Counted from the first letter of the stretch, positions 6,339 through 23,302 are shown. The stretch is 24,000 nt of DNA from Carboxydocella sporoproducens DSM 16521 (GCF_900167165.1 NZ_FUXM01000004.1:2901-26900), one strand, 5' to 3'. Made by a program: numbers and translations. Notes: generated by a model from the letters alone, not told the origin.

Positions 6339-7652
6339 CTATTCTTCCGCTTGTGCTGCTGCTATTTCACCCCTGGCTGCACCGGTTTCTATTTCCGTTA
6401 ATATTTGTTTTTCCCACTTCGGGGCTAACCGCTTTTCCCAGGCCTGCACAAATGCCTGAACCACCTGGCTGTCCAGTTCAGCACCACCGCATTTTTGCAG
6501 TTCCTGAATGGCCTCCCGGGGAGATCGTCCAGCCCGATAGACCCGGTTAGACGTCATGGCATCAAAGCAATCTGCCACCGCAATAATCCGGGCCCCCATG
6601 GGAATTTCTTCACCACGTAGTCCATCAGGATAGCCGGATCCATCCATGCGTTCATGGTGGTAACGGACCATAAGATAAGCATCTCCCAGATTTTTGACCT
6701 GCTTTAGAATCTCAGCCCCAACTAGGGCATGGTCCTTGATGCGATTATATTCCTGGGGGCTAAGACGGGTACTTTTGTTAAGGATAACATCAGGAATGGC
6801 AATTTTGTCAATATCATGGAGCAAAGCCATATAGCGCAAAGTCTCAATTTTATGTTCCGGCCAATCCAGTTCTCGGGCGGTTTCCACTGCGAATTCAGCT
6901 ACTCGCTCGGAATGTCCTTTGGTATAGAGATCCTTGGCCTCAATAGCGGTAACCAGGGCCTGGACTGTGTCCAGGTACATTTGCCGGGTGTCCATGTAGA
7001 GTTTGAAGGAATGGCGGGCCAGCATGAGGGGCAGGATGAACATTAATATGCCTAGTGCCCCCCATGCTTCATATATTTTGGCCATTAAAATACCCATTGG
7101 GGTAAGGGCAAGAAAATTTGGAACAACCCATTTATAATTTATCATCCAAATATCATATAGTTTCAAGTTTTGGGCCATTGCCAATGCTATTGATACTAAA
7201 AAAATATTCAATACAACAAAAATAATCGCGCTAATTATAGTTGCAGGCACTAAACTCCATAAATTTATGAAGAACAATTTTGCAAAAGCAGCTAAACTAA
7301 TTGATATTATAAACTGTCCAATGTTAAATAGAATTTTAAAAATGTTTTTATTTTTGATTGTAAAACTGTTTAGACATTCGCCTATGAAAACGGAAAGAAT
7401 TGCTGCGGGAGGATTAAAAAAATATAAAATTGCAACATTTAAAGCGATTCCAACTGTAATACTTGCACCTCTTGGCAAAAAAACAGGAAACATTTCAATA
7501 ATCCAATAGACCAAAGCAAATAATACTATATCGAATAGACTATTTTTTTCAAAATTTGTATGTGTAATTGCGTATGCTAATAATATTACCGCAGCTATAT
7601 CAACCAAAAAAATATATATATTTAGCATCTTCGCTTTCATAGACGAATACAT
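6339..7652 (-). CDS. Membrane-bound HD-GYP domain protein (putative c-di-GMP phosphodiesterase)
   Basis: 437 aa. Roughly the first 200 aa form a multi-pass membrane domain. The C-terminal half has GHSERVAEFA, LLHDIDKIAIP and the canonical HHERMDGSGYPDGL...ADCFDAMTSNRVYR. GAGGTGA lies 5 nt before ATG 7652. Confidence 0.85.
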   Translation of the reverse strand: MYSSMKAKMLNIYIFLVDIAAVILLAYAITHTNFEKNSLFDIVLFALVYWIIEMFPVFLPRGASITVGIALNVAILYFFNPPAAILSVFIGECLNSFTIKNKNIFKILFNIGQFIISISLAAFAKLFFINLWSLVPATIISAIIFVVLNIFLVSIALAMAQNLKLYDIWMINYKWVVPNFLALTPMGILMAKIYEAWGALGILMFILPLMLARHSFKLYMDTRQMYLDTVQALVTAIEAKDLYTKGHSERVAEFAVETARELDWPEHKIETLRYMALLHDIDKIAIPDVILNKSTRLSPQEYNRIKDHALVGAEILKQVKNLGDAYLMVRYHHERMDGSGYPDGLRGEEIPMGARIIAVADCFDAMTSNRVYRAGRSPREAIQELQKCGGAELDSQVVQAFVQAWEKRLAPKWEKQILTEIETGAARGEIAAAQAEE

Positions 7653-7673
7653 ATGCTCACCTCAGTTAAATAG

Positions 7674-7751
7674 TTAAACCCACCGAGTACTAGCCCCACC
7701 TACCAGTACAACAGCGATCAGAGCCAATACAACTTTCAGTACTTTTTGCAT
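7674..7751 (-). CDS. Candidate small hydrophobic peptide (25 aa)
   Basis: Not in the ORF track. Hand translation gives MQKVLKVVLALIAVVLVGGASTRWV-stop. A perfect AAGGAGGTG lies 7 nt upstream of the ATG. The stop is 22 nt before the HD-GYP start. It could form one TM helix. Length alone gives no statistical support. Confidence 0.35.
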   Translation of the reverse strand: MQKVLKVVLALIAVVLVGGASTRWV

Positions 7752-7846
7752 CGCGGTACACCTCCTTCTGTTTTTTTATTTTAGGTGACCGCTCCTCTCA
7801 CTCTCATTTATGCCATGTCTCCCATCAAGGAGACGAATGGCCCTGT

Positions 7847-8491
7847 TTAGGGTTTAACCAGCAATGACAGACGCCGGTTTACGGCATTGAGGGTAGCCTT
7901 TACCACAGTCTCCCACTCATCAACCCGGACGTAGGCGGAACCAATCAAGGCCTCTTCCTCTTCCGGGGTAACCAGGGTTACAGCTACCACTGCGGCTTGC
8001 TTGCGTCCCAGGTGAATGATGGCTACATCATCCACAGCGAAGGTGCAATTGCCGCGCAGATAGCGCTCCAGCGCATCCAGAGTGGCCTGAGCCACCAGGC
8101 GCAGTTTATTGTTATAGGCTCCCGGGCCCTGGGCTCGACCAAACATGGTATCATCACCGAGCTGAAGTTCCACTTCCGCCTTGGCTTGTACCCCTTCAGT
8201 AAACAGCTCAGCCCGTATCAGTTTGGGGCGAACCTCGGTGACGGGAATCTCTTCTTCATTAGCCATTTGAGCTACGGAAATTTTCTTGTGGTCCAGGGCC
8301 ACGCCAAACTGGGCCATCACCGCCGATTCTATATCCCGTACCAGTTGCTTGGGGCTGCGGTTTTGCTTGGCCAGAACATGGACTTCCTGAACTTCACCGT
8401 ATTCATTGGAAACTATTTTAGCAGAAACTACATCCTTTATCTGGCGAATAATAGCTTCAAATTCTCTGATCATTTCCGGAGTTACACCCAT
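7847..8491 (-). CDS. Hypothetical two-domain protein, no family recognised
   Basis: 214-aa ORF on the same strand as its neighbours, with non-repetitive composition. It has an N-terminal module of about 75 aa (IKDVVSAKIVSNEYGEVQEVHVLAK..PKQLVRDIESAV), an acidic linker (NEEEIPVTE) and a C-terminal alpha/beta-looking domain of about 130 aa. The SD is weak (GGAGAGGA about 16 nt upstream). Confidence 0.65.
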   Translation of the reverse strand: MGVTPEMIREFEAIIRQIKDVVSAKIVSNEYGEVQEVHVLAKQNRSPKQLVRDIESAVMAQFGVALDHKKISVAQMANEEEIPVTEVRPKLIRAELFTEGVQAKAEVELQLGDDTMFGRAQGPGAYNNKLRLVAQATLDALERYLRGNCTFAVDDVAIIHLGRKQAAVVAVTLVTPEEEEALIGSAYVRVDEWETVVKATLNAVNRRLSLLVKP

Positions 8492-8601
8492 TTTCTATCA
8501 TCCGTCCTCTCCTGGTATTCTCGCTCACTCTCGATTAGTGTAATATTTTCTACAAAATTTCAATTTTTCCTGCTTGTTAATTCAAAAAATACAACTTTTT
8601 T

Positions 8602-8629
8602 AAAAAAGGCCAGTCCCTGTGGACCGGCC
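8602..8629 (-). terminator. Rho-independent terminator after hpf
   Basis: Minus strand GGCCGGTCC-ACAG-GGACTGGCC (9 bp, one G-U) followed by TTTTTT (complement of A-run 8602..8607). Confidence 0.75.
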
Positions 8630-8650
8630 TATTTCCTTACTGCCAAAACT

Positions 8651-9175
8651 TTAAAATTCAGGTTCGATCAGACCATATTTGCCATCGCGCCGCCGGTAAA
8701 CCACATTCACCTCATTGGTATCTGCATTACGGAAAACGTAGAAGGAATGACCTACCAGATTCATTTGCAAAATGGCTTCCTCGACAGGCATCGGTTTGAC
8801 CGCAAAGCGTTTGGTCTTGACCACACTGTCATCAATATCGGCTGTCTCCACATCAGCTGCAACTGGCTCCAGGGAAGCCAGGTTGCGCAGCTTTTTGCTG
8901 AGGCGGGCGCGATATTTTTGGACCTGACGTTCCAGTTTTTCCACTACCAGGTCGATAGAAGCATACATATCGTTGCTGGCTTCCTCGCCGCGGATAATCA
9001 TACCTTCAACGGGAATGGTCACTTCTACCCGATGCATGTTCTTTTCCACTACCAGAGTTACCTGCACATTGGTTATTTCACCCAGATATTTCTCCAGCTT
9101 ACCAATCCGCTTTTCCACATAATCTCTGAGTGCGTCCGTTACTTCAATGTTTTTCCCCCGTACAACAAACTTCAT
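8651..9175 (-). CDS. hpf: Ribosome hibernation promoting factor, long form
   Basis: MKFVVRGKNIEVTDALRDYVEKRIGKLEKYL... is the S30AE/HPF N-terminal domain. The C-terminal dimerisation domain (KRFAVKPMPVEEAILQMNLVGHSFYVFRN..TNEVNVVYRRRDGKYGLIEP) is typical of long HPF. I place the start at ATG 9175 (AAAGGAG about 9 nt upstream), not at the track GTG 9184. Confidence 0.93.
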   Translation of the reverse strand: MKFVVRGKNIEVTDALRDYVEKRIGKLEKYLGEITNVQVTLVVEKNMHRVEVTIPVEGMIIRGEEASNDMYASIDLVVEKLERQVQKYRARLSKKLRNLASLEPVAADVETADIDDSVVKTKRFAVKPMPVEEAILQMNLVGHSFYVFRNADTNEVNVVYRRRDGKYGLIEPEF

Positions 9176-9200
9176 AACAGTCACTCCTTTCTCGTCTGTA

Positions 9201-9228
9201 AGTATAATATTTTCTGTTTGCCTGTTAA
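9201..9228 (-). promoter_or_regulatory. Candidate sigma-A promoter for hpf
   Basis: Minus strand has TTAACA (9223..9228), a 16-nt spacer, then TATACT (9201..9206). Confidence 0.4.
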
Positions 9229-9268
9229 AAAATCCTGCTAATTTAAAACAGAAAGTAGAAAATTTTTC

Positions 9269-9988
9269 TTACAGAACTTTGCTGAGAAAAGAGCGAGTCC
9301 GTTCCTGCTGGGGGTTCTGGAAAATCTGTTCCGGGGTTCCTTCTTCCACTATCCGCCCTTCATCCATAAAGATGACCCGGTCACCCACTTCCCGGGCAAA
9401 CCCCATTTCATGGGTAACCACCACCATGGTCATCCCTTCCCGGGCCAGATCCTTCATTACGTTCAGTACCTCACCCACCATCTCCGGGTCAAGCGCAGAA
9501 GTGGGCTCATCAAAAAGCATTACTTTGGGCCGCATGGCCAGGGCCCGGGCAATCGCCACCCGCTGCTGCTGACCGCCGGAAAGCTGGTCCGGATAGGAAT
9601 CGGCTTTGTCGGAAAGGCCGACTTTAGCCAGCAGTTCCCGGGCGATTTTTTCCGCTTCTGCCTTACTCTGCTTCCGAACCTGAATGGGCGCCAGGGTAAT
9701 GTTCTGCAAAGCGGTCATATGGGGAAAAAGATTGAAGCGCTGAAAAACCATGCCCACTTCCTGGCGAATGGCATTGATGTTGGCCTTGGAGGTCAGGGGA
9801 ATATTGTCCACGATAATTTCACCAGCAGTAGCTTCTTCCAGTTTATTGATACAACGCAACATGGTGCTTTTGCCGGAACCGGAAGGACCGATAACCACCA
9901 CCACTTCCCCCTCCCGGACATGGAGGTTGATGTCCTTTAACACTTCCAGGTCACCGAAGCGTTTATAGAGGTTTTTAATGACGATCAC
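9269..9988 (-). CDS. Polar amino-acid ABC transporter, ATP-binding protein
   Basis: Walker [10 protein letters not shown], signature [15 protein letters not shown], Walker [12 protein letters not shown], and an overall GlnQ/HisP-like sequence. The GTG start overlaps the permease stop. Confidence 0.93.
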
Positions 9989-10658
9989 TGACCCTCAACC
10001 TCCTTTCCATATAGGCCACCCACCGGGAAATGGTCATGGTCATGATAAGATAGATCACAGCAGCTGCAATATAGATTTCAAAGAACTTGTATTCCCGGCC
10101 AGCTACGTTCTTGGCCTGCATCATCAATTCCGGCAAAGCGATGACGGAAACCAGGGATGAGTCCTTGAGCAAAGCTATAAATTCATTGCCCAATGGCGGA
10201 ATTACCCGTTTAAAAGCCTGAGGAAGGATAACAAAACGCATTGCCTGGCCATAGGACATGCCCAGGGAGCGGGCTGCTTCCATTTGCCCTTTATCAATAG
10301 ACTGAATACCGGCCCGGAAGATTTCCGCCACATAGGCACCGCTATTGAGGGTAAAGGCAAGAATACCGGAAAGAAAAGGATTAGGAACATATTCCCAGGA
10401 AGTTCCCTGGACCAGCTGGGGTATACCGTAATGGATGATCAAGATCTGTACCAGCAAAGGAGTTCCGCGGAAAAAGTCCACATAGGCAGCAGCTCCCCAG
10501 GACAGGACCCGCCAGTGAGACAGGCGACAGAGGGCCAGGAACAGGCCCAGGAAAGTGCCGAGGAACACTGAAACAATGGTCAATTCCAGCGTCAACCAGG
10601 TGCCCTGCAGCAAAACCGGCAGGTTACGCAGGGCAATGCCAAAATCCAAATCCAGCAT
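9975..10658 (-). CDS. Polar amino-acid ABC transporter permease (His/Glu/Gln/Arg/opine family)
   Basis: 227-aa polytopic ORF with the EAA-loop region ([28 protein letters not shown]). GGAGG lies 7 nt upstream of the ATG. Confidence 0.9.
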
Positions 10659-11633: not shown

Positions 11634-12155
11634 TTATTGCCAGTAAGCGAAAAATACCAGCAAATTCCACGAAGTGTGCGCCAACCAGGGGTAAAAAATC
11701 GCCCTTTCCCTGTAAAAAAGCCAGAACAGGACCATCCCAGCCAGGGTAAAAGGCAAAAGCAACCAGCCACCACCATGAAAAGCGGCAAAAATCAGCCCAT
11801 TCCCACAGGCTGCCGGCCAGAATGAGAACCGGTATAGCAAAAAATTGCCCAGCAGACCGCGAAAGAAAATTTCTTCCACCAGTGGTCCCAGGCCAATCAA
11901 AGCCAGTGCCGGCCAGTACCAGTTTGTACTCAATCCCAGTTGTTCCACTGATTGCTGGCGAGGAAAATAGGGAGCCAGCCAGAGCATCCCCTGGCCAATG
12001 AGTAAACCGCTTAATACCGCAATCATTCCCAGTTTAGCCCTGAAACCCTGAGTGGGAAAAAATTTTATTCTTTTTTTGCTGATAAGCTGCAATATAATTA
12101 AAAAAAACAGCCATAATATTTGTTGGTTAAACATTTCCTGCCAGTAATTTTTCAT
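11634..12155 (-). CDS. CPBP-family intramembrane glutamic endopeptidase (CAAX protease / Abi-like)
   Basis: 173-aa hydrophobic ORF with all three CPBP motifs: EEIFFRG, FAAFHG and HTSWN. Confidence 0.8.
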   Translation of the reverse strand: MKNYWQEMFNQQILWLFFLIILQLISKKRIKFFPTQGFRAKLGMIAVLSGLLIGQGMLWLAPYFPRQQSVEQLGLSTNWYWPALALIGLGPLVEEIFFRGLLGNFLLYRFSFWPAACGNGLIFAAFHGGGWLLLPFTLAGMVLFWLFYRERAIFYPWLAHTSWNLLVFFAYWQ

Positions 12156-12267: not shown

Positions 12268-12903
12268 GTGACTACCATCGATTGGTTGATTTTTTTCACC
12301 GGCCTGCTGGCTCTAGTGGCTCTTTTGTATTATCTTTTCATCCCCACCTGGCCCAGGCCAGCGCCCAAACCTGAACGGCAGGACCAGGAGTTCGCCAGTG
12401 AACTGGCCCCAGCCTTCCCGGTCAAAGAAATTGTAACAGATTTGCCCACCTATTACCAGGGAGATAATCGGCTAGTAGCTGTGGCCCGCGACCCGGAAAC
12501 TATTTTTGTCTACTGGCAGCTGGATCCGGTTTACCTGGAAAGCCTGGAGGCGGAATTACCAGCCCTGAAAAGCGGCATAACCCAGCTTCGTCTTTATCGA
12601 TATGATGAAACTACCGGGCAATGGCTGCTGGAAAATTGTAAAAACCTGACCAGTTTTGTGACCAGTTTTTATTTCCATCTGGCCCGCCCCGATGCCAGAT
12701 ATAAGGTGGAGTTAGGGCGATTGCTCAACAATCAACTCTTTTATTGCTTGCTGGTTAGCAATGAAGTAGTTACACCCAGAGCTTATTTTTCAGCTCTGAT
12801 TGATGAGAACTGGCCCCCCTTGCTGCCTTTATATCAACAATTACCGCAGAAAGAAAGGATGATTGGCTCCTATGTCCATTTCACAATTGCCCCAGATGTA
12901 TGA
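12268..12903 (+). CDS. DUF4912-like protein with N-terminal transmembrane anchor
   Basis: GTG start 6-7 nt after AAAGGAGG. One TM helix (IDWLIFFTGLLALVALLYYLFI), then LPTYYQGDNRLVAVARDPETIFVYWQL, the motif I associate with DUF4912. It is paralogous to the next ORF. Confidence 0.7.
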   Translation: MTTIDWLIFFTGLLALVALLYYLFIPTWPRPAPKPERQDQEFASELAPAFPVKEIVTDLPTYYQGDNRLVAVARDPETIFVYWQLDPVYLESLEAELPALKSGITQLRLYRYDETTGQWLLENCKNLTSFVTSFYFHLARPDARYKVELGRLLNNQLFYCLLVSNEVVTPRAYFSALIDENWPPLLPLYQQLPQKERMIGSYVHFTIAPDV

Positions 12904-13309
12904 GGAGAACCGTCTGGTCCTGTTAACCCGGGATCCCTGGTGGCTGTTTGCCTACTGGGACCTGCGCCATCCTATCGGGCCGCCTGATTTGCCCCGGTTT
13001 ATTCGCCTTTATCGCGGGGGCTTGAACGGCCCCCATTTTGATTATCCGGTACATCCCATGGCCAACAATTATTACCTGCGGGTTCCGGCCGCTAACTCCA
13101 CATATGTCGCCCAGCTGGGGCATCTGGAACAGGGGCAGTTTGTACCCTGGCTTACCTCCAATCCCGCCCTGACCCCGCGGGCAGAAGCCTCCGGCCGCTG
13201 GGATCCCGACTGGCCCCCTCTGGGCGTAGGGCCGGAAATTAAAGCCGGTACAGCTTCAGGCTGGGGAACTTCTCCCGGTTTCTGGAAAGCAGGTGAAAAA
13301 CATGCCTAA
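12872..13309 (+). CDS. DUF4912-like protein, soluble paralogue
   Basis: LPQMYEENRLVLLTRDPWWLFAYWDL...RLYR...TPRA...WPPL aligns with the upstream protein. It overlaps that gene by 32 nt and the GH57 gene by 8 nt. The start is ambiguous (ATG 12872 or TTG 12863). Confidence 0.7.
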   Translation: MSISQLPQMYEENRLVLLTRDPWWLFAYWDLRHPIGPPDLPRFIRLYRGGLNGPHFDYPVHPMANNYYLRVPAANSTYVAQLGHLEQGQFVPWLTSNPALTPRAEASGRWDPDWPPLGVGPEIKAGTASGWGTSPGFWKAGEKHA

Positions 13310-14921
13310 AGGCTATTTGGCTTTAGTGTTACATGCCCATTTACCCTATGTCCGGCATCCGGAAGATCCTGATGCTCTGGAAGAACGCTGGCTGTTTGAA
13401 GGCATCACTGAAACTTATATACCTTTACTGGCCAAATTTGAAAAACTGGTGGAGGATGGGGTGGATTTTCGGCTGACCATGTCTTTCAGCCCCACCCTGA
13501 CCTCCATGCTCCTGGATCCTCTGTTGCAAGAAAGGTATTATGTTTATTTAAGCAAATTAAGAGAGCTTATCTACAAAGAACTGGACCGTACCTATGGCGA
13601 TCCTCGTTTCCATCGCCTGGCTCAGATGTATCATTATCTGGTTAACCAGTGTTTTTATTATTTCTTTGAAAAATATGCCGGTAATTTATTAACCGGCTAT
13701 CGTCGCTTACAGGAAGCCGGACGATTGGAATTGATCACCTGTGGTGCTACCCATGCCTATTTCCCTTTAAATGGTTTGACCCGTCAGGCTGTACGGGCCC
13801 AGGTGGCTCTGGCCGTAGAAAACCACTGGCGGGTGTTTGGCAGTCAACCCCAGGGGATGTGGTTGCCAGAGTGTGCCTATCATCCCGGAGATGATGAATT
13901 TCTGGCGGAATTCGGCATTAGATACTTTTTCCTGGATACCCATGGTGTATTGTTTGCTTCCACCCGACCCCGTTACGGGGTCTATGCTCCCATTGTCACT
14001 CCCGCCGGGGTAGCAGCTTTCGGACGGGATGTGGAATCTTCCAAACAGGTCTGGAGTGCCGATGAAGGTTATCCCGGCGATTTCGATTACCGGGAATTCT
14101 ACCGGGACATCGGTTATGATTTGGATTATGACTATATCAAGGACTATATTCACCCCTCCGGTATCCGCTTACATACCGGCATCAAATATTACCGGATTAC
14201 GGGCAAGAAGAGCGAATGGAAAGAACCCTATGTGCCCGAGTGGGCTACAGAAAAGGCAGCCATCCACGCCGGCAACTTCATGTTCAACCGGGAACGCCAG
14301 GTTGAATACCTGGCGTCCCTGATGGACCGTAAACCCATTGTGGTAGCTCCCTATGATGCGGAATTGTTCGGTCACTGGTGGTTTGAAGGGCCTCAGTTCC
14401 TGGATTTTCTCTTGCGTAAAATCCATTATGATTCCAAAATCCTGAAAACTGCTACCCCTTCTGACTATCTGGCCGAATATCCCCGTAATCAGGTTACCGA
14501 ACCCTGCATCTCTTCCTGGGGCCATAAAGGATACCATGAAGTGTGGCTGGAAGGCAGTAATGACTGGATTTATCGGCATTTACACAAAGCCGCCGAACGG
14601 ATGACCGAATTGGCCCGCCGGTTTACTAATCCTACGGCAGAACAGGAACGGGCCCTCAACCAGGCCGCTCGTGAACTCTTACTGGCTCAGGCCAGTGACT
14701 GGGCCTTTATTATGAAAACAGGCACCATGGTGAATTATGCCATCAGACGTACCAAAAATCATATCCATAATTTCACCAGACTTTATGAACAATTGTTGCA
14801 AAACCAGCTGGATCTCCACTGGCTTCAAGAACTGGAAATTAATAACAATCTTTTCCCCTGGCTCAATTACCGCATTTATGCCTGGGAAGCTCCTCCTCAA
14901 AAAGCGAGGGCGTCGGTTTAA
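13302..14921 (+). CDS. GH57-family 1,4-alpha-glucan branching enzyme
   Basis: [18 protein letters not shown] at the N-terminus, GMWLPECAY (nucleophile Glu region) and [15 protein letters not shown] (acid/base Asp region) match my recollection of the Thermus/Thermococcus GH57 branching enzymes. ATG 13302 is preceded by AGGTGA. Confidence 0.9.
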
Positions 14922-14943
14922 CCGACACCCTCGCTTTCTTTCT
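14899..14943. terminator. Bidirectional intrinsic terminator containing both convergent stop codons
   Basis: 13-bp stem 14904..14916 / 14922..14934 (GCGAGGGCGTCGG / CCGACACCCTCGC). The one mispair is C-A on the plus RNA and G-U on the minus RNA. Loop is TTTAA. AAAAA lies on the left and TTTCTTTCT on the right. TAA (+) is 14919..14921 and TAA (-) is 14918..14920, within one TTAA. Confidence 0.75.
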
Positions 14944-17335
14944 GGATTTCCGTAATTTTTTGCAGCAACTGCTCAGTCAAGCTTTCTGCTATTTCCATGT
15001 CAGGTCCTTCCGCATAAATACGGCAAACGGGTTCCTCCGAATCGGGCAAAACCAGGGCCCAGGCGCCATTGTCCCAGAGCTTGATGCCATCCAGCAACTC
15101 CAACTCCCGATCCTGCAATTCTTCCATCAAGCGACGCATGACCAGGCCCTTGGCTTCCCAGGGACAGGCTGTGGATTTAGCAACCCAGTTAAAGTCAGGC
15201 AGCTCCTGTAACAGCCTTTCCAGCCCTTGCTCTTCCGCCTGCCTGAGCAGAACCAGCAGGGTATAGAGATCATCGGCCAGCAGGTAGAACCCCTCTTCAT
15301 CCTGCGCCCACTGATTCTGAATCAGGCCGGGATTAGTCTTGACCGGCTGAATCACCGCCCCCCGCTCTTGCAGGCGGCGGGCCAGGGCCTGGGGCCAGTG
15401 AACAGGATAGGGAATAACAGCTTGCTCTTTCCTTTGGGCATAGAGCCAGGTTTTCAGTATCTGAACCTGAGCGGGAGCCAAATACATTCCCCCGGGCAGA
15501 ACCAGGGATAAGCGTTCCCCTTCTTCCCCAAACCAGAGCCCCAGGTCCAATCTTTCTGTTTGTACCAGACTGATCAGCTGTTCCAGCTGCTGTTCCCCGT
15601 CCTGGAGATAGATGAGACGAAAACCGGTATCCTGAAAGATCCGGGGTAAAATCTGGGCCAGAGCCGGAGTCAGGGCCCCTACCCCAATTCGCCATTGATA
15701 ATTTTGTCCCCGCGGACGGAAATTGAGCAAAAAGCCGGTATATTCATCCAGTCCACTGGGCAAAGGCATAACCCGCCCCAGATGTCCGGCAGCTGTGCGC
15801 CGCATCCCTTCCCGTCCCAGCAGATTTTCCACCTTGCGTTCTTCTGCCGGAGTTAAGCTGGCTCCCTGCTGATTGAGGAGCAAAACCCGGGCCCGGTTGC
15901 CCTGCCCGCTGCCCTGAATATGCACCCCGCCACTGGCAGCCAGACTGCGAATCAAGTAGCGGCTGGCACCACCGGTCAGAATGCCGGCATCCCAGACCAC
16001 CATCCCTGCTCCCAGCAATCCCGCCAGAACAGCATGTTTCAGCATTGCTGCCGCCGGAGAATGGTCAGTGCTGACTAACAGGGCAGTTTCCGGCTGGAAT
16101 AGAGTGGCAAAAGCAGCCGCCACTTTCACCGCCTGTTCCGGAGTCAGTTCCCGGTTAATTTCTCCCACAATCCCCTCGCGCCCGAAGAGCGTACGGGGCT
16201 GGCGTTCTCCCCAAACCAGGTTTTCCCGCAGGCGGGCTCCGCTTTCCACCCGTTTCTGGGGCCAGATTTTTACCCCGGCATCTACATAAACCCGTTCGCC
16301 CAGTACCGTACCATCTCCGATCACCGCACCTTGATAAATCCGGCTCCCCTGACCCACCTTGACCTGACGGCAGAGGATAGCCCCGCGGATTTCTGCTCCG
16401 GCACCTATATTTACCCCTTCCCAGAGAACAGCCCGTTTAAGGCTGGCTTTGCTGCCGAGATGACAATTGCGGCCAATCACCGTAAAAGGCCCCACATAGG
16501 CCTCCGCATCAATAACGGTATCCGCTCCGATAAAAGCCGGCCCTTCCAGATAGGCCCGGGGATGGATTTTTGCCCCTGCCTCAGCCCAGACCCCCGGAGC
16601 TACCTGTTGACCGCCCAGTTCCAGCTGCACCCCACCGGCCAGCACGGCATAATGGGCTTCTGCATATTGTTGCAAATTGCCGATATCACACCAGTACCCC
16701 GCCAGGATACAGCCGAAGAGCGGTCTCCCTTCCGCCAGCAAGCGGGGAAAGAGATCTTTACTGAAATCAAACTGCTGACCTGCCGGAATATATTGCAATA
16801 CCCGGGGTTCCAGGATATAGATCCCGGTATTGACCGTATCACTGAAAACCTCACTCCAGCTGGGTTTTTCCAGGAAACGATAGATACTGCCATTTTTATC
16901 AGTCATCACTACCCCGTATTCCAGAGGTGTCTGGACCCGGGTCAAAACCAGGGTTGCCCAGGCACCCTTTTGCCGATGAAACTCAATGGCCCGGCTCAGG
17001 TCAAAATCCGTCAGCGCATCACCACTGATAACAATAAAAGGTTCATCCAAAAATTCTTCTGCATTTTTGACACTGCCAGCAGTGCCCAGGGGAGTTTCCT
17101 CCAGAAAATAGCGCATTTCCACCCCCCAGTCACTGCCATCGCCAAAATATTCCATAATGGCCTCCGGCAGATACTGCAAGGTAACCCCAATCTGACGGAT
17201 GCCATGTTTTTTCAGGAGATTGACAATGTGTTCCATCACCGGCCGGTTCAGTAAAGGCGTCAGAGGTTTGGGCCGGTCACAGGTTAATGGTCTCAGTCGG
17301 GAACCTTCCCCTCCCGCCATAATAATGGCTTTCAT
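14918..17335 (-). CDS. Sugar-1-phosphate nucleotidyltransferase + left-handed beta-helix + phosphohexomutase-like C-terminal domain (fusion protein)
   Basis: The N-terminus [22 protein letters not shown] is the GGxGxRL NTP-transferase signature. Residues about 270-360 carry hexapeptide repeats. Residues about 381-805 start with [13 protein letters not shown] and follow PGM/PMM domain order. GGAGGT lies 6 nt before the ATG. Confidence 0.85.
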
Positions 17336-17355
17336 AGCCAGACCTCCGTTCTCTA

Positions 17356-18528
17356 TTATTGTTCTGCCAGAATTTCTTCATAAACTGCTACCGTAGTGCG
17401 GGCAATTTTGTCCCAGTTATAGATTTCCAGCACCTCCCGGTAGGCCCTTTCTTCCACCTGCCGGGCAAAGGGCGGATCACAGAGAATTTTCAGCACATTA
17501 TCGGCCAGGGAATCAGGAGAACCTACATAGCATTTCAAACCATTTACGCCATGTTTAATAATTTCCCCCAGTCCACCGGTATCACTGACTACCACTGGCG
17601 TCCGGGCCGCCATAGCTTCCAGGGCCACAATACCAAAAGGTTCATACAGGCTGGGAAAAACCGCAACGGAAGCAGAACGGTACAGTTTATTACGGGTCAC
17701 ATCATCGATATAACCGGTAAAATAAATTCTCTCTGTCACGCCCATCTCCCAGGCCTTTTGCCGCAAATAACCTTCCGCCGGCCCTCGACCGGCGATAACG
17801 AACTTGGTCTGGGGATGGTAATGGAGAATTTTCGGAATGGCATCCAGCAAGACATGCGCCCCTTTTTCATGCACCAGCCGTCCTACGAAAAAGACGATTT
17901 TTTCGGTAGGATGGGCATATCGATTGCGAAAATCCGGTTCAGGTTCGGTTTGAAAATCCTCCGGCCTTACGCCGTTCGGTATGATACGGATTTTGTCTTC
18001 CGGCAGAGAGAATATGTATCTCACCTCATTATGCATATATTGACTGCAAACAATCACCCGCCAGGCTTCATAAGTCAGCCACCACTCCACATCACTGATA
18101 TAGCGCTGGTTATCATCATGCAGCCCCCAGTTGCGCCCGAATTCAGTGGCATGAATGGTAGCTACCAGTGGAATGTTCTGAGCGTGTTTAACCGCCCGGC
18201 TGACATATGCAGTTAACCAGTCATGGCAGTGAACAATATCCCAGGGGGCTGATTGGCTATCCCGCAAAGTCATGGTGAATTCCAGCATGGCCAGGTTCAA
18301 CTGCAAAATCCAGGTGCGAAAATCCGGAGCCCGCAAATGATATGGCTGGACGCGATAAACCTCCACCCCCTCTATATTTTCATAGGCAGGCAGGTTATCT
18401 CCCCCGCAGGTGACAACCTGAATTTCATGGCCCTGTTTGGCCGTGGCCAGAGTCAAATCATGCACATGCCGGGCCAGACCGCCTACGCTTTTGGGCGGAA
18501 ACTCCCAGGAATACATTAATATACGCAC
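17356..18528 (-). CDS. Retaining glycosyltransferase (GT4/GT5-like), glycogen-synthase-like
   Basis: N-terminal [21 protein letters not shown] resembles the K-x-GGL motif of archaeal-type glycogen synthases. E-x7-E motif present (EPFGIVALE). The likely start is GTG 18528 (AAAGGGGG + 6 nt), because the track ATG 18534 abuts the SD. Confidence 0.85.
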
Positions 18529-18592
18529 TGTCATCCCCCTTTCGTTCTGGATTTACTTGATTAGTTTATCCAGCGGGACGGAAAAATATGAT

Positions 18593-18623
18593 AAAAAAAG
18601 GGCATGGTTTACACCATGCGCCC
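18593..18623 (-). terminator. Rho-independent terminator after the CBM-gene triplet
   Basis: Minus strand GGGC(GC)ATGGT-GTAA-ACCATGCCC (9 bp plus a 2-nt bulge) followed by TTTTTTT. The stop codon of the 18609 gene sits in the loop. Confidence 0.7.
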
Positions 18624-18989
18624 ATTGTGAACAATAAAGGACCAGTTATTGCCATTGTTATTATCCCAGTTATTGGCACTGTCCTTGAAGCAGAAATTAA
18701 GCCTGGTCCCTTCGGCCACGGTTATGGTTTTTTCCCAGCCATGGCCGGTAAAATACATGGGATAGTCGGTTACCATCTGCCAGTTGTCATTGGAACCATA
18801 CCCTACATGCAGGTAGATTTGCTGGGCTCCGCTTTTAGCCAGCAGGCCGTTATACAGGATTGTCACTTCCTGACCAGCCGTAATCGGGGTAGGATCCACA
18901 GTCACACCGCCCTGTAGCTGGCTTTCTGCCATCTCCTTCAAGCGGTGATCACTATCGCGGAAATTGGTGTGTTTCATTTCCACCATCAT
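18609..18989 (-). CDS. Stand-alone CBM25/CBM53-like starch/glycogen-binding domain protein, copy 1
   Basis: ILYNGLLAKSGAQQIYLHVGYG..W...M...GWEKTITV...LNFCFKDSANNWDNNNGNNW matches the YN..L / G.N.W / F.F.D...WDNN.G pattern of CBM25/CBM53. No catalytic domain and no signal peptide. The start is ambiguous (ATG 18989/18986 or GTG 18983) because GGAGGTG lies immediately upstream. Confidence 0.75.
   Translation of the reverse strand: MMVEMKHTNFRDSDHRLKEMAESQLQGGVTVDPTPITAGQEVTILYNGLLAKSGAQQIYLHVGYGSNDNWQMVTDYPMYFTGHGWEKTITVAEGTRLNFCFKDSANNWDNNNGNNWSFIVHNGRMV
18661..18698. repeat. 38-nt stretch identical to 19389..19426 (copy 1 vs copy 3 of the CBM genes)
   Basis: ttatcccagttattggcactgtccttgaagcagaaatt occurs at both positions (compared by hand). 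Extending to 48 nt adds only 2 mismatches. Confidence 0.9.
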
Positions 18990-18998
18990 TTCACCTCC

Positions 18999-19337
18999 TC
19001 AGGAGATAACTTCCAGCCGCCAATTGTGGCCATTGTTGTTATCCCAGTTATTGGCCGCATCCCGGAAGCAAAAATTCAATTCATGGACATCCTGGACCTG
19101 GATGGTATTTTCCCAGCCCCGGGCAGTCCGCACCATAGGCATGTCCAGGGAATCATGCCAGTCCGGACCATAGCCGGCATGCAAATATACCTGGCTAGCA
19201 CCGCTATTGGCCAGGAGGCCATTGTAGATAATGGTCACTGAACCCCCGCGGGCTACCGGCAGGGGCCCGGCTACTACACCATTGACCAGGTGCCCTGTGC
19301 CCTCAATGGCGATATGATGCACCGTCTTCACCTCCAT
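18999..19337 (-). CDS. Stand-alone CBM25/CBM53-like domain protein, copy 2
   Basis: IIYNGLLANSGASQVYLHAGYG..W...M...GWENTIQV...LNFCFRDAANNWDNNNGHNW. ATG 19337 overlaps the upstream stop (TAATG). Alternatively GTG 19322 lies 6 nt after an internal GGAGGTG. Confidence 0.75.
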   Translation of the reverse strand: MEVKTVHHIAIEGTGHLVNGVVAGPLPVARGGSVTIIYNGLLANSGASQVYLHAGYGPDWHDSLDMPMVRTARGWENTIQVQDVHELNFCFRDAANNWDNNNGHNWRLEVIS

Positions 19338-19648
19338 TAGGCTCGCAAATTGTTGTTGATAGCTACTGACCAGTTGAGGCCATTATTGTTATCCCAGTTA
19401 TTGGCACTGTCCTTGAAGCAGAAATTGAGGCTGCCGGGATGTTCTACTGACAGCACCTTCTGCCAGCCATTGGCCGTTTTCTGCATGGGGTAATCACAAA
19501 CATATTCCCATTTATCCCCATAACCCACATGCAAGTACACCTGGTCAGCTCCCGACCGGGCCAGTAAGCCATTGTACTGAATCCGGACCAGATCACCCGC
19601 CTTGATAATGTCCGGAGTAACCTCAATTCCCTGTTGTTCAATCCGCAT
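19337..19648 (-). CDS. Stand-alone CBM25/CBM53-like domain protein, copy 3
   Basis: IQYNGLLARSGADQVYLHVGYGDKW...M...GWQKVLSV...LNFCFKDSANNWDNNNGLNW. I place the start at ATG 19648 (GGAGGTG + 6 nt) rather than the track start 19666. Confidence 0.75.
   Translation of the reverse strand: MRIEQQGIEVTPDIIKAGDLVRIQYNGLLARSGADQVYLHVGYGDKWEYVCDYPMQKTANGWQKVLSVEHPGSLNFCFKDSANNWDNNNGLNWSVAINNNLRA
19389..19426. repeat. 38-nt stretch identical to 18661..18698
   Basis: As for the partner repeat. It encodes (N)FCFKDSANNWDNN on the minus strand. Confidence 0.9.
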
Positions 19649-19697
19649 ATAAATCACCTCCGGCATTAGTATGATACCAGCAGGGCAAATCTATGCT

Positions 19698-19727
19698 AAA
19701 AAAATAGCCCTCGGTTTAACCGAGGGC
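19698..19727 (-). terminator. Rho-independent terminator after sdhB
   Basis: GCCCTCGG (19707..19714) / CCGAGGGC (19720..19727), 8-bp perfect stem, 5-nt loop. On the minus strand it is followed by TATTTTTTT. Confidence 0.8.
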
Positions 19728-23132: not shown

Positions 23133-23209
23133 CGGGGCGTAGCGCAGTTTGGTAGCGCGCCACATTCGGGATGTGGAGGCCGCAGGTTCGAATCCTGTCG
23201 CCCCGACCA
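23133..23209 (+). tRNA. tRNA-Pro (anticodon CGG)
   Basis: Folded by hand. Acceptor CGGGGCG/CGCCCCG, D-stem GCGC/GCGC, anticodon stem CCACA/TGTGG with loop TTCGGGA, T-arm GCAGG-TTCGAAT-CCTGT, encoded CCA. 77 nt. Confidence 0.95.
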
Positions 23210-23215
23210 GTGCCT

Positions 23216-23302
23216 GCGGACATGGCGGAATTGGCAGACGCGCTAGATTCAGGTTCTAGTGGGCTTACGCCCGTGGAGGTTCAAGTCCTCTTGTCCGCAC
23301 CA
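23216..23302 (+). tRNA. tRNA-Leu (anticodon CAG), class II with long variable arm
   Basis: Acceptor GCGGACA/TGTCCGC, anticodon stem CTAGA/TCTAG with loop TTCAGGT, long variable arm, T-arm GGAGG-TTCAAGT-CCTCT, encoded CCA. 87 nt. Confidence 0.95.

Follow-up and report, generated by a model that had tools for sequence, protein, structure and literature searches.

The locus analyzed in this study lies in a window of 24,000 nucleotides (nt) from the genome of Carboxydocella sporoproducens DSM 16521 (GCF_900167165.1, NZ_FUXM01000004.1:2901-26900; positions are counted from the first letter of the window). Eight adjacent genes at 12268-19666 encode two DUF4912 proteins, a GH57 glycoside hydrolase, a fusion of a nucleotidyltransferase with a domain resembling phosphoglucomutase and phosphomannomutase (PGM/PMM), a GT4 glycosyltransferase, and three proteins that each consist of a CBM53/CBM25 carbohydrate-binding module (Table 1). 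We consider it fairly likely that these genes encode a non-classical cytoplasmic pathway for a branched α-1,4/α-1,6 (glycogen-like) glucan, because of the domain identities, the intact active sites, the tight linkage of the genes, and the existence of GH57::GT4 fusion proteins. The original prediction had described an α-glucan neighborhood without classical glg genes, in which activation, polymerization, and branching are each covered by an atypical enzyme. All eight open reading frames (ORFs) were found at the predicted positions, and in a hidden Markov model check all eight products passed the Pfam gathering score for the domain named. The three steps are indeed represented, by the nucleotidyltransferase, GT4, and GH57 proteins, respectively, and the non-classical character of the set was confirmed, since no NCBIfam equivalog cut-off was reached for GlgC, the GT5-type GlgA, or the Corynebacterium-type GlgA/GlgM.

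On the plus strand the reading frames overlap, as had been noticed. Start codons are given here as judged from the positions of ribosome-binding sites (RBSs). The first DUF4912 gene (DUF4912a) begins with a GTG codon preceded by GGAGGA; the second (DUF4912b) likely starts at ATG 12872, within the end of DUF4912a, and overlaps both neighboring genes; and the GH57 gene likely starts at ATG 13302 after an AGGTGA site, with an 8-nt overlap with the DUF4912b stop. The three genes are predicted to be translationally coupled. On the minus strand, each of the three CBM genes is preceded by a GGAGGTGA RBS, and the first of them (CBMc) likely starts behind it at ATG 19648, yielding a protein of 103 amino acids (aa). 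The separate terminator claimed for the CBM genes was recovered as a terminator-like hairpin after the third of them, and the division of the locus into three transcription units is plausible. The GH57 and fusion genes are convergent, their 3' ends overlap by 4 nt (14918-14921), and there is no terminator between them, so that the transcripts of the two strands would be mutually antisense. A sporulation-sigma promoter upstream of the GT4 gene was considered and rejected, as the by-eye match was too weak.

Table 1. Genes and signals of the α-glucan locus and its borders. Positions are those of the window.
Feature	Position	Strand	Evidence
Rce1-like (CPBP/CAAX-type) intramembrane protease gene, divergent from DUF4912a	11634-12155	-	Pfam PF02517
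DUF4912 with N-terminal transmembrane helix (DUF4912a)	12268-12903	+	Pfam, 65.5 bits
Second DUF4912, soluble (DUF4912b)	12863-13309	+	Pfam, 71.6 bits
GH57 branching enzyme (predicted)	13293-14921	+	Pfam Glyco_hydro_57 and BE_C
Nucleotidyltransferase/PGM-like fusion	14918-17335	-	Pfam NTP_transferase, LbH, PGM_PMM_I only
GT4 glycosyltransferase	17356-18534	-	Pfam Glycos_transf_1, Glyco_transf_4, Glyco_transf_5 (N-terminal)
Terminator-like hairpin and T-run, between CBM genes and GT4 gene	18602-18619	-	
CBM53/CBM25 protein, third of three	18609-18989	-	Pfam CBM53, 49.1 bits; CBM25 weaker
CBM53/CBM25 protein, second of three	18999-19337	-	Pfam CBM53, 46.8 bits; CBM25 weaker
CBM53/CBM25 protein, first of three (CBMc)	19337-19666	-	Pfam CBM53, 41.0 bits; CBM25 weaker
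Sigma-70-like promoter match, upstream of CBM genes	19671-19699	-	Consensus match only
sdhB terminator hairpin	19727-19707	-	Just before sigma-70-like match

The conservation of the locus was assessed in two scans. A genome scan anchored on the fusion protein supplied the best 80 species-level loci of at least 597 matched stretches, 78 of them with a full-length fusion ORF, and a metagenome scan anchored on a trimmed DUF4912 alignment supplied another best 80 loci, of which 59 were non-redundant and assessable. Both samples, being the best 80 matches, are biased toward relatives of the queries; neighbors were counted as six-frame maximal ORFs scored with profiles built for this analysis. The fusion-anchored loci belong mostly to Bacillota, with some from Armatimonadota, Chloroflexota, Coriobacteriia, and Obscuribacterales. 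The GT4 ortholog lies directly upstream of the fusion gene in 38 of the 78 loci, and a GH57 branching enzyme gene occurs within 10 kb in 23 of them. DUF4912 directly precedes this gene in all 21 loci that could be assessed (the other two are cut by a contig end). The median gaps are 23 nt between the GT4 and fusion genes and 17 nt between the DUF4912 and GH57 genes. The same pair was seen from the other side in the metagenomes, where the GH57 gene immediately follows DUF4912 in 48 of the 59 loci; in three of the exceptions that were checked (loci L129, L166, and L167), DUF4912 is followed by ApbE.

In seven genomes the GH57 and GT4 proteins form a single ORF of 930-986 aa (loci L040, L053, L059, L060, L062, L068, and L071, at approximately 7000-10000 in each), within the co-directional order DUF4912, GH57::GT4, fusion gene; the carriers include Phosphitispora, Alicyclobacillus tolerans, a Pelotomaculum metagenome-assembled genome, and Paenibacillus selenitireducens. 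The covalent union of the two enzymes is the strongest single argument that the chains on which the branching enzyme acts are made by GT4. The full arrangement of the window, with CBM53, GT4, and fusion genes converging on GH57 and a DUF4912 gene of the transmembrane (TM) type, was found in Thermincola potens and Desulfurispora thermophila; it recurs with no fusion gene nearby in Heliomicrobium, with no GH57 gene nearby in Formimonas, and without CBM53 in two unrelated metagenome contigs. In support of the prediction, the same neighbors were found in dozens of genomes at the species level as well as on metagenome contigs, and their clustering is far beyond chance. The proposed set of eight has to be reduced, however. 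DUF4912, GH57, GT4, and the fusion gene are conserved, whereas CBM53 is present in only 10 of the 78 fusion-anchored loci and the second DUF4912 gene is a local duplicate. The conserved core consists of these four genes, in the pairs DUF4912 with GH57 and GT4 with the fusion gene.

De novo clustering of the neighbor ORFs yielded GH15 and Glucodextran_C, in five loci each, as the only further recurrent glucan families, and none of glgC, glgA (GT5), glgB (GH13), glgE, and glgP was among the recurrent neighbor ORFs. A TM-type DUF4912 and CBM53 were both found in 14 loci, the TM type alone in two, and neither in 16; the sole entry with CBM53 and no TM helix is the soluble DUF4912b of the window itself. 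The two features together mark off one subtype of the cluster, confined to a Bacillota subgroup that comprises Carboxydocella, Thermincola, Heliomicrobium, Desulfurispora, Desulforamulus, and their relatives.

The fusion protein has 805 aa and is composed of a nucleotidyltransferase with a left-handed β-helix (LbH) domain (residues 1 to approximately 370) and a PGM/PMM-like domain (approximately 378-805). The predicted nucleotidyltransferase/phosphohexomutase-like fusion was correct in its first half, where the motifs are intact, whereas the mutase half is dead, all three of its catalytic loops being lost. Residues 1-316 match PDB entry 8x7s, deposited as a UTP-glucose-1-phosphate uridylyltransferase, with 250 bits, the next best matches being GDP-mannose pyrophosphorylases at approximately 180 bits. 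The nucleotide-binding GGxGxRLRPLT and sugar-phosphate EKP motifs are intact in all aligned orthologs, and the scores of classical GlgC are far from reached (TIGR02091, 111.6 versus a cut-off of 424.9; NF003670, 118.9 versus 470). The N-terminal half thus appears to be an active enzyme that most resembles UDP-glucose pyrophosphorylase, and the sugar donor is probably UDP-glucose, given the identity of the best solved relative. We take this half to be of the CugP (non-GalU) type, 8x7s presumably being CugP. The alignment with 8x7s spans the full length of the N-terminal 316 residues, but CugP is a stand-alone protein of approximately 390 aa and the protein studied here carries a dead PGM-like extension of approximately 430 aa. 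The existence of CugP is stated in a cited source (PMC7133116).

Over residues 383-802 the second half aligns end to end with archaeal phosphosugar mutases (PDB 9ix8, E-value 3e-21), that is, the homology extends over all four domains. The phosphoserine loop TASHNP is replaced by QGS-GQG, the Mg loop DGDxDR by GEEGER, and the phosphate loop RPSGTEP by LPDSEEP. The latter two loops are degenerate in all aligned orthologs, the position of the catalytic serine is occupied by S, A, N, M, R, or P across six diverse orthologs, and the canonical loop [ST][AG]SHN occurs in none of 84 orthologs. At the same time, the segment WALVLPDxxEPVxR is invariant in the six-sequence alignment, and this strict pattern matches 36 of the 84. 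In an exhaustive search, the PGM-like half alone matched 108 cluster representatives at E<=1e-30, and in almost every case the protein has 790-860 aa and the domain is at approximately 381-820. From these patterns, the domain appears to be a pseudo-mutase under selection, catalytically dead family-wide and essentially always fused to a nucleotidyltransferase. As the PGM-like half is dead, the cluster does not supply the conversion of glucose-6-phosphate to glucose-1-phosphate, and to call the system self-contained, as had been done, was too strong. We suggest that the dead half could serve as a regulatory, hexose-phosphate-sensing, or scaffolding module. Inactive homologs of sugar-phosphate enzymes are paired with active nucleotidyltransferases in the GMPPA-GMPPB, GlgD, and eIF2B gamma/epsilon systems as well (PDB 7d72 is among the matches of the fusion protein), but there the inactive partner is a second nucleotidyltransferase, whereas here it has the phosphohexomutase fold and is covalently attached. 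GMPPA, for instance, is an inactive paralog that regulates GMPPB.

The GT4 protein is the putative α-1,4-glucan synthase. The glycosyltransferase that had been recognized by a K-x-GGL motif does belong to GT4 and has an N-terminal domain of the starch synthase type according to Pfam, but the motif actually reads K-S-V-G-G-L; the E-x7-E motif is EPFGIVALE. The score of the GT5 GlgA family is missed (TIGR02095, 104.3 versus 328.45). The best PDB match is the GlgM protein 6tvp (99.5 bits), followed by archaeal GlgA, with MshA-type GT4 enzymes nearly as high, so that the acceptor is not fixed by sequence alone. The most serious rival explanation, since the closest solved GT4 relative is GlgM, is that the protein makes maltose-1-phosphate from a nucleoside diphosphate (NDP)-glucose and glucose-1-phosphate, which a GlgE encoded elsewhere polymerizes and the GH57 enzyme then branches. 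In addition to this structure of a maltose-1-phosphate synthase, the best NCBIfam match, the Corynebacterium-type GlgA/GlgM family TIGR02149, points the same way, and a 2024 review in Chemical Reviews argues that many GT4 enzymes named GlgA are GlgM and that the role of GT4 in glycogen metabolism needs clarification (PMC11046441). However, the TIGR02149 score is 162.1 versus a cut-off of 302.4 and is to be read beside the almost equally good MshA-type matches; glgE, treS, and pep2 are absent from the approximately 170 neighborhoods; and a polymer-bound synthase agrees better with both the GH57::GT4 fusions and the CBM53 genes next to GT4. We consider the GlgM route unlikely.

The GH57 protein is assigned as a glycogen branching enzyme (GBE) by domain and fingerprint criteria, and a branching activity is predicted for it. 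There is no settled view of what bacterial GH57 branching enzymes do physiologically. The Pfam scores are 137.5 bits for PF03065 and 139.7 bits for BE_C (PF09210), and the best PDB match is 2b5d (TM1438 of Thermotoga maritima, 552 bits), followed by the branching enzymes of Pyrococcus, Thermococcus, and Thermus; the scores of the lineage-specific NCBIfam branching-enzyme equivalogs are not reached. Both GBE fingerprints, HxHLP in conserved sequence region (CSR) I and ELF/YGHW in CSR-IV (PMC11206854), are present, as HAHLP at position 14 and ELFGHW at 357, with the nucleophile region WLPECA at 190, and both were found in 28 of 29 GH57 orthologs. The similarity to the characterized enzymes (TM1438/AmyC, 2b5d; T. 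kodakarensis, 3n8t; P. horikoshii, 5wu7; T. thermophilus, 1ufa and 3p0b) thus comprises full-length homology, BE_C, and both fingerprints, but none of these enzymes has been studied alongside a DUF4912 partner. A second GH57 subfamily, of approximately 580 aa and scoring approximately 250 bits against the window enzyme, was observed near the fusion gene in loci L066, L069, L083, and L089 (Armatimonadota) and in L010, L043, and L047, either replacing the pair of DUF4912 and GH57 branching enzyme or besides it; HxHLP is missing in five of its seven copies.

Two readings in which the GH57 enzyme would have another task were weighed. The first is a catabolic or remodeling cluster, in which the enzyme would be chiefly an amylase for imported maltodextrin, with the CBM proteins aiding starch use. 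Its closest solved homolog 2b5d was indeed deposited as an α-amylase, and in five loci the cluster additionally includes a GH15 glucoamylase. Against this speak the presence of the GBE fingerprints, the absence of signal peptides from all eight proteins and of a sugar transporter, and the nucleotidyltransferase and synthase genes that are tightly linked to, or the latter even fused with, GH57; we judge this reading very improbable. The second is a small specialized α-glucan instead of bulk glycogen, for instance an oligoglucan like the backbone of the methylglucose lipopolysaccharides (MGLPs) or a glucosylated compatible solute. GH57 and GT4 are paired in the MGLP cluster Rv3030-Rv3032 of Mycobacterium tuberculosis, where, going by its description, Rv3031 resembles a GH57 branching enzyme and Rv3032 is a GT4 α-1,4-glucosyltransferase (PMC4555173), and one GH57 enzyme, that of P. 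mobilis, reportedly shortens branches (PMC11206854). Yet no methyltransferase, acyltransferase, or glucosylglycerate genes were found in the window or in the conserved neighborhood, CBM53 modules bind polymeric starch-like glucans, and the mycobacterial cluster is not reported to hold DUF4912, the fusion gene, or CBM53 genes. A small glucan is therefore improbable, and on these grounds the MGLP-type and the catabolic readings were both rejected in favor of the glycogen-like pathway.

The DUF4912 proteins exceed the gathering score of PF16258 (29.4) by a wide margin (Table 1). DUF4912a is 99% identical to a protein of Carboxydocella sp. ULO1 (thermophilic Clostridia); as a single query it retrieved two matches, and a six-sequence profile retrieved 32. 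The TM segment proposed for it is present as an N-terminal helix (residues 3-23) and is kept in the orthologs. In the AlphaFold2 model, based on 33 sequences, this helix is followed by a disordered linker and by a β-sandwich at approximately 65-165 with a predicted local distance difference test (pLDDT) score above 90, for which Foldseek found generic FN3-type sandwiches only. The family signature consists of RDPYW..YWE and RSN.V.TPR..S..ID..W, and several of its aromatic residues are invariant; the window proteins have these motifs in variant form and keep the invariant W83, S164, T169, P170, and S175. DUF4912b has no TM helix and is 31% identical to DUF4912a; as other genomes contain a single copy, it seems to be a local Carboxydocella duplicate. 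Neither DUF4912 nor the CBM-only proteins are represented by an NCBIfam model.

We suggest that DUF4912 is a non-catalytic partner of the branching enzyme that would bind the glucan and/or position the enzyme, because of its near-obligatory upstream position, the translational coupling, the β-sandwich with conserved aromatics, and the lack of a carbohydrate-binding module in GH57. In classical systems the GH13 branching enzyme GlgB has a CBM48 module, which GH57 enzymes lack. In this lineage the TM helix would fix DUF4912 to the membrane from the inside: in every TM-type ortholog the helix is followed by positively charged residues, which places the domain on the cytoplasmic side.

The helix also invites the reading that an α-glucan of the envelope or spore is built at the membrane, with the TM-type DUF4912 and the Rce1-like protease acting in its localization or export. 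The conservation of the helix in the subgroup, the Rce1-like gene adjacent in several lineages, and the fact that the host lineages are mostly spore formers are in line with this, but the catalytic proteins are all soluble and cytoplasmic, no transporter, flippase, or lipid-carrier glycosyltransferase gene accompanies them, the DUF4912 domain lies inside the cell according to its distribution of charges, and DUF4912 is soluble in most clusters elsewhere. An envelope or spore glucan is thus quite improbable. Apart from the window, an Rce1-like gene was found beside or near a TM-type DUF4912 at L001 17117-17872, L005 14861-15535, L035 7332-8036, L063 20114-20851, and L009 191-949. The protease could process the DUF4912 anchor, or the association could be merely conserved synteny; it is possibly an associated component, not a core one.

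Other forms and contexts of DUF4912 were also observed. A Rho_N-bearing DUF4912 without membrane helix occurs in Aquisphaera giovannonii (L008 7974-9119) and in P0136 and P0138, the Planctomycete copy lying apart from glucan genes, and Rho_N-type DUF4912 proteins reportedly occur across Cyanobacteria (PMC13613805). At L150 4662-8747, a GH57 gene of the 4-α-glucanotransferase type (Pfam) and a GalT-like (HIT-family) nucleotidyltransferase gene are followed by DUF4912; a weak GH57 match lies likewise upstream of DUF4912 in L146 and L148. CipG, a cyanobacterial glycogen-deposition factor, was considered as a possible DUF4912 protein and discarded, as it is an unrelated pentapeptide-repeat protein.

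The three CBM proteins carry a single module each in approximately 100-125 aa, with CBM53 scores (Table 1) well above the gathering score of 27.6. CBMc shares 49% and 58% identity with its two paralogs, and the alignment of the trio shares conserved Y/W positions. Its AlphaFold2 model (pLDDT 89) has as best Foldseek match a domain of the starch-active BoGH13ASus (TMq 0.72), with the CBM25 structure 2c3v also listed. Among 393 CBM53 homologs, almost all are single-domain proteins of 100-130 aa from Bacillota. An exact-sequence look-up of one window CBM protein gave no match, probably due to a differing called start. The CBM53 gene is directly upstream of GT4 in 24 loci (median gap 126 nt); CBM53-only genes also stand alone in Neomoorella and in one metagenome contig. 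By domain and fold, the proteins are predicted cytoplasmic binders of starch-like glucans. In starch synthase III (SSIII) of plants and algae, three N-terminal CBM53 modules in tandem accompany a GT5 catalytic domain; they bind starch and are either required for activity or modulate it (PMC6210743, PMC10485787). Just as these modules act in cis in plant SSIII, we propose that the three CBM53 proteins would attach to the glucan as it grows and influence the GT4 synthase in trans. Thus, three CBM53 modules accompany an α-1,4-glucan synthase in both cases, but here they are separate proteins of approximately 100 aa with their own promoter and terminator signals, and the synthase belongs to GT4, not to GT5.

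In clusters without CBM53, a stand-alone Glucodextran_C protein (PF09985) of approximately 320 aa was observed upstream of GT4 (L010 14334-15344, L024 4786-5748, L051 4165-5103, L061 6047-6910, and L064 6222-7265), which may be an alternative glucan-binding accessory. Further, an HMGL-like/HCS_D2 gene (homocitrate- or isopropylmalate-synthase-like), often together with Iso_dh, adjoins CBM53-GT4 just upstream of CBM53 in 13 loci (L001, L004, L005, L006, L007, and others). The window has no such gene; the association probably reflects conserved synteny, not a functional link.

Taken as a glycogen-like pathway, the locus would operate as follows. The N-terminal half of the fusion protein would form NDP-glucose from glucose-1-phosphate and a nucleoside triphosphate, most likely UTP; GT4 would extend α-1,4 chains from NDP-glucose; and GH57 would add α-1,6 branches. 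These are the three steps of the classical GlgC-GlgA(GT5)-GlgB(GH13) pathway (sugar-nucleotide synthesis, α-1,4 elongation, and α-1,6 branching), and GlgC shares the layout of NTP_transferase with a left-handed β-helix. In contrast to that pathway, every enzyme belongs to another family or subfamily, the donor is probably UDP-glucose, GH57 has no built-in CBM48, and three extra non-catalytic components are present, namely DUF4912, the stand-alone CBM53 proteins, and the dead PGM domain.

Several observations weigh against the proposed pathway. The FN3-like fold of DUF4912 is generic and by itself no indication of glucan binding, and some DUF4912 proteins stand alone beside unrelated genes. Neither GT4 nor GH57 is near the fusion gene in 20 of the 48 loci (approximately 40%) where it is flanked by 5 kb or more on both sides. 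GlgM, the nearest solved relative of the GT4 protein, synthesizes maltose-1-phosphate and is not a polymerase. Shared ancestry may account for the joint occurrence of TM-type DUF4912 and CBM53. Finally, GH57 branching enzymes can be strongly hydrolytic or yield only small branched glucans (PMC11206854).

A broader idea, which we put forward as speculative and consider doubtful, is that DUF4912 proteins form a hitherto unrecognized class of spatial organizers of α-glucan synthesis. The sandwich would dock GH57 and/or the nascent glucan, and interchangeable N-terminal modules (a membrane helix in this lineage, the SAP-like Rho_N in the Planctomycete and reportedly in Cyanobacteria, or long disordered regions in other proteins) would anchor the machinery to a cellular structure. 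In the subgroup of the window, this would be a granule system tethered to the membrane, with the CBM53 trio and the Rce1-like protease among its components, and the dead PGM domain would sense hexose phosphates and thereby gate the supply of UDP-glucose.

The catalytic families are individually known, and there is no sign of an artifact. In the literature searched, we found no paper on the cluster, and the four-gene module, the DUF4912-GH57 pairing, the GH57::GT4 fusion, the pseudo-PGM fusion, and free CBM53 proteins beside a synthase were undescribed; mentions of DUF4912 were rare, and none was about glucans, while 8x7s was not mentioned. Earlier in silico surveys of GH57 may have noted fusions of GH57 with glycosyltransferases. 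The comparative-genomics paper on Carboxydocella and Thermincola mentions glycogen only for other organisms, and never starch, granules, or polysaccharide. The analysis thus points to a module of a GH57 branching enzyme, a GT4 candidate synthase, and a dedicated nucleotidyltransferase, sometimes covalently fused, that is widespread in many Bacillota, while the fusion gene alone extends to Armatimonadota, Chloroflexota, and Coriobacteriia. As the linked module is so widespread, a complete alternative glycogen pathway is directly testable. Further, the cluster offers a first functional context for DUF4912, a conserved pseudo-phosphoglucomutase domain has been identified, and CBM53, best known from plant SSIII, is seen to occur as free-standing bacterial proteins. 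If the helper proteins do control where and how the glucan is laid down, they could serve the engineering of branched glucans in thermophiles.

The remaining genes of the window encode YitT, a release factor (presumably prfB), SecA, two HD-domain proteins, Hpf, an amino-acid ABC transporter, the Rce1-like protease, SdhCAB, and Hsp20; no further glucan gene, GH13 gene, or catabolic gene was found by Pfam elsewhere in the window. The release factor ORF (PCRF and RF-1 domains; 1087-2103) has upstream of it, at 2125-2131 on the minus strand, the sequence CTTTGAC, the classic site of programmed +1 frameshifting in RF2, so that the listed ORF probably lacks its first approximately 25 codons. A 214-aa ORF without Pfam match (7847-8491, minus strand) lies beside the stretch of lowest GC content in the window (7001-8000, GC 0.38 versus approximately 0.50 elsewhere). 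Tandem genes for tRNA-Pro(CGG) and tRNA-Leu(CAG) are located at 23133-23302 on the plus strand.

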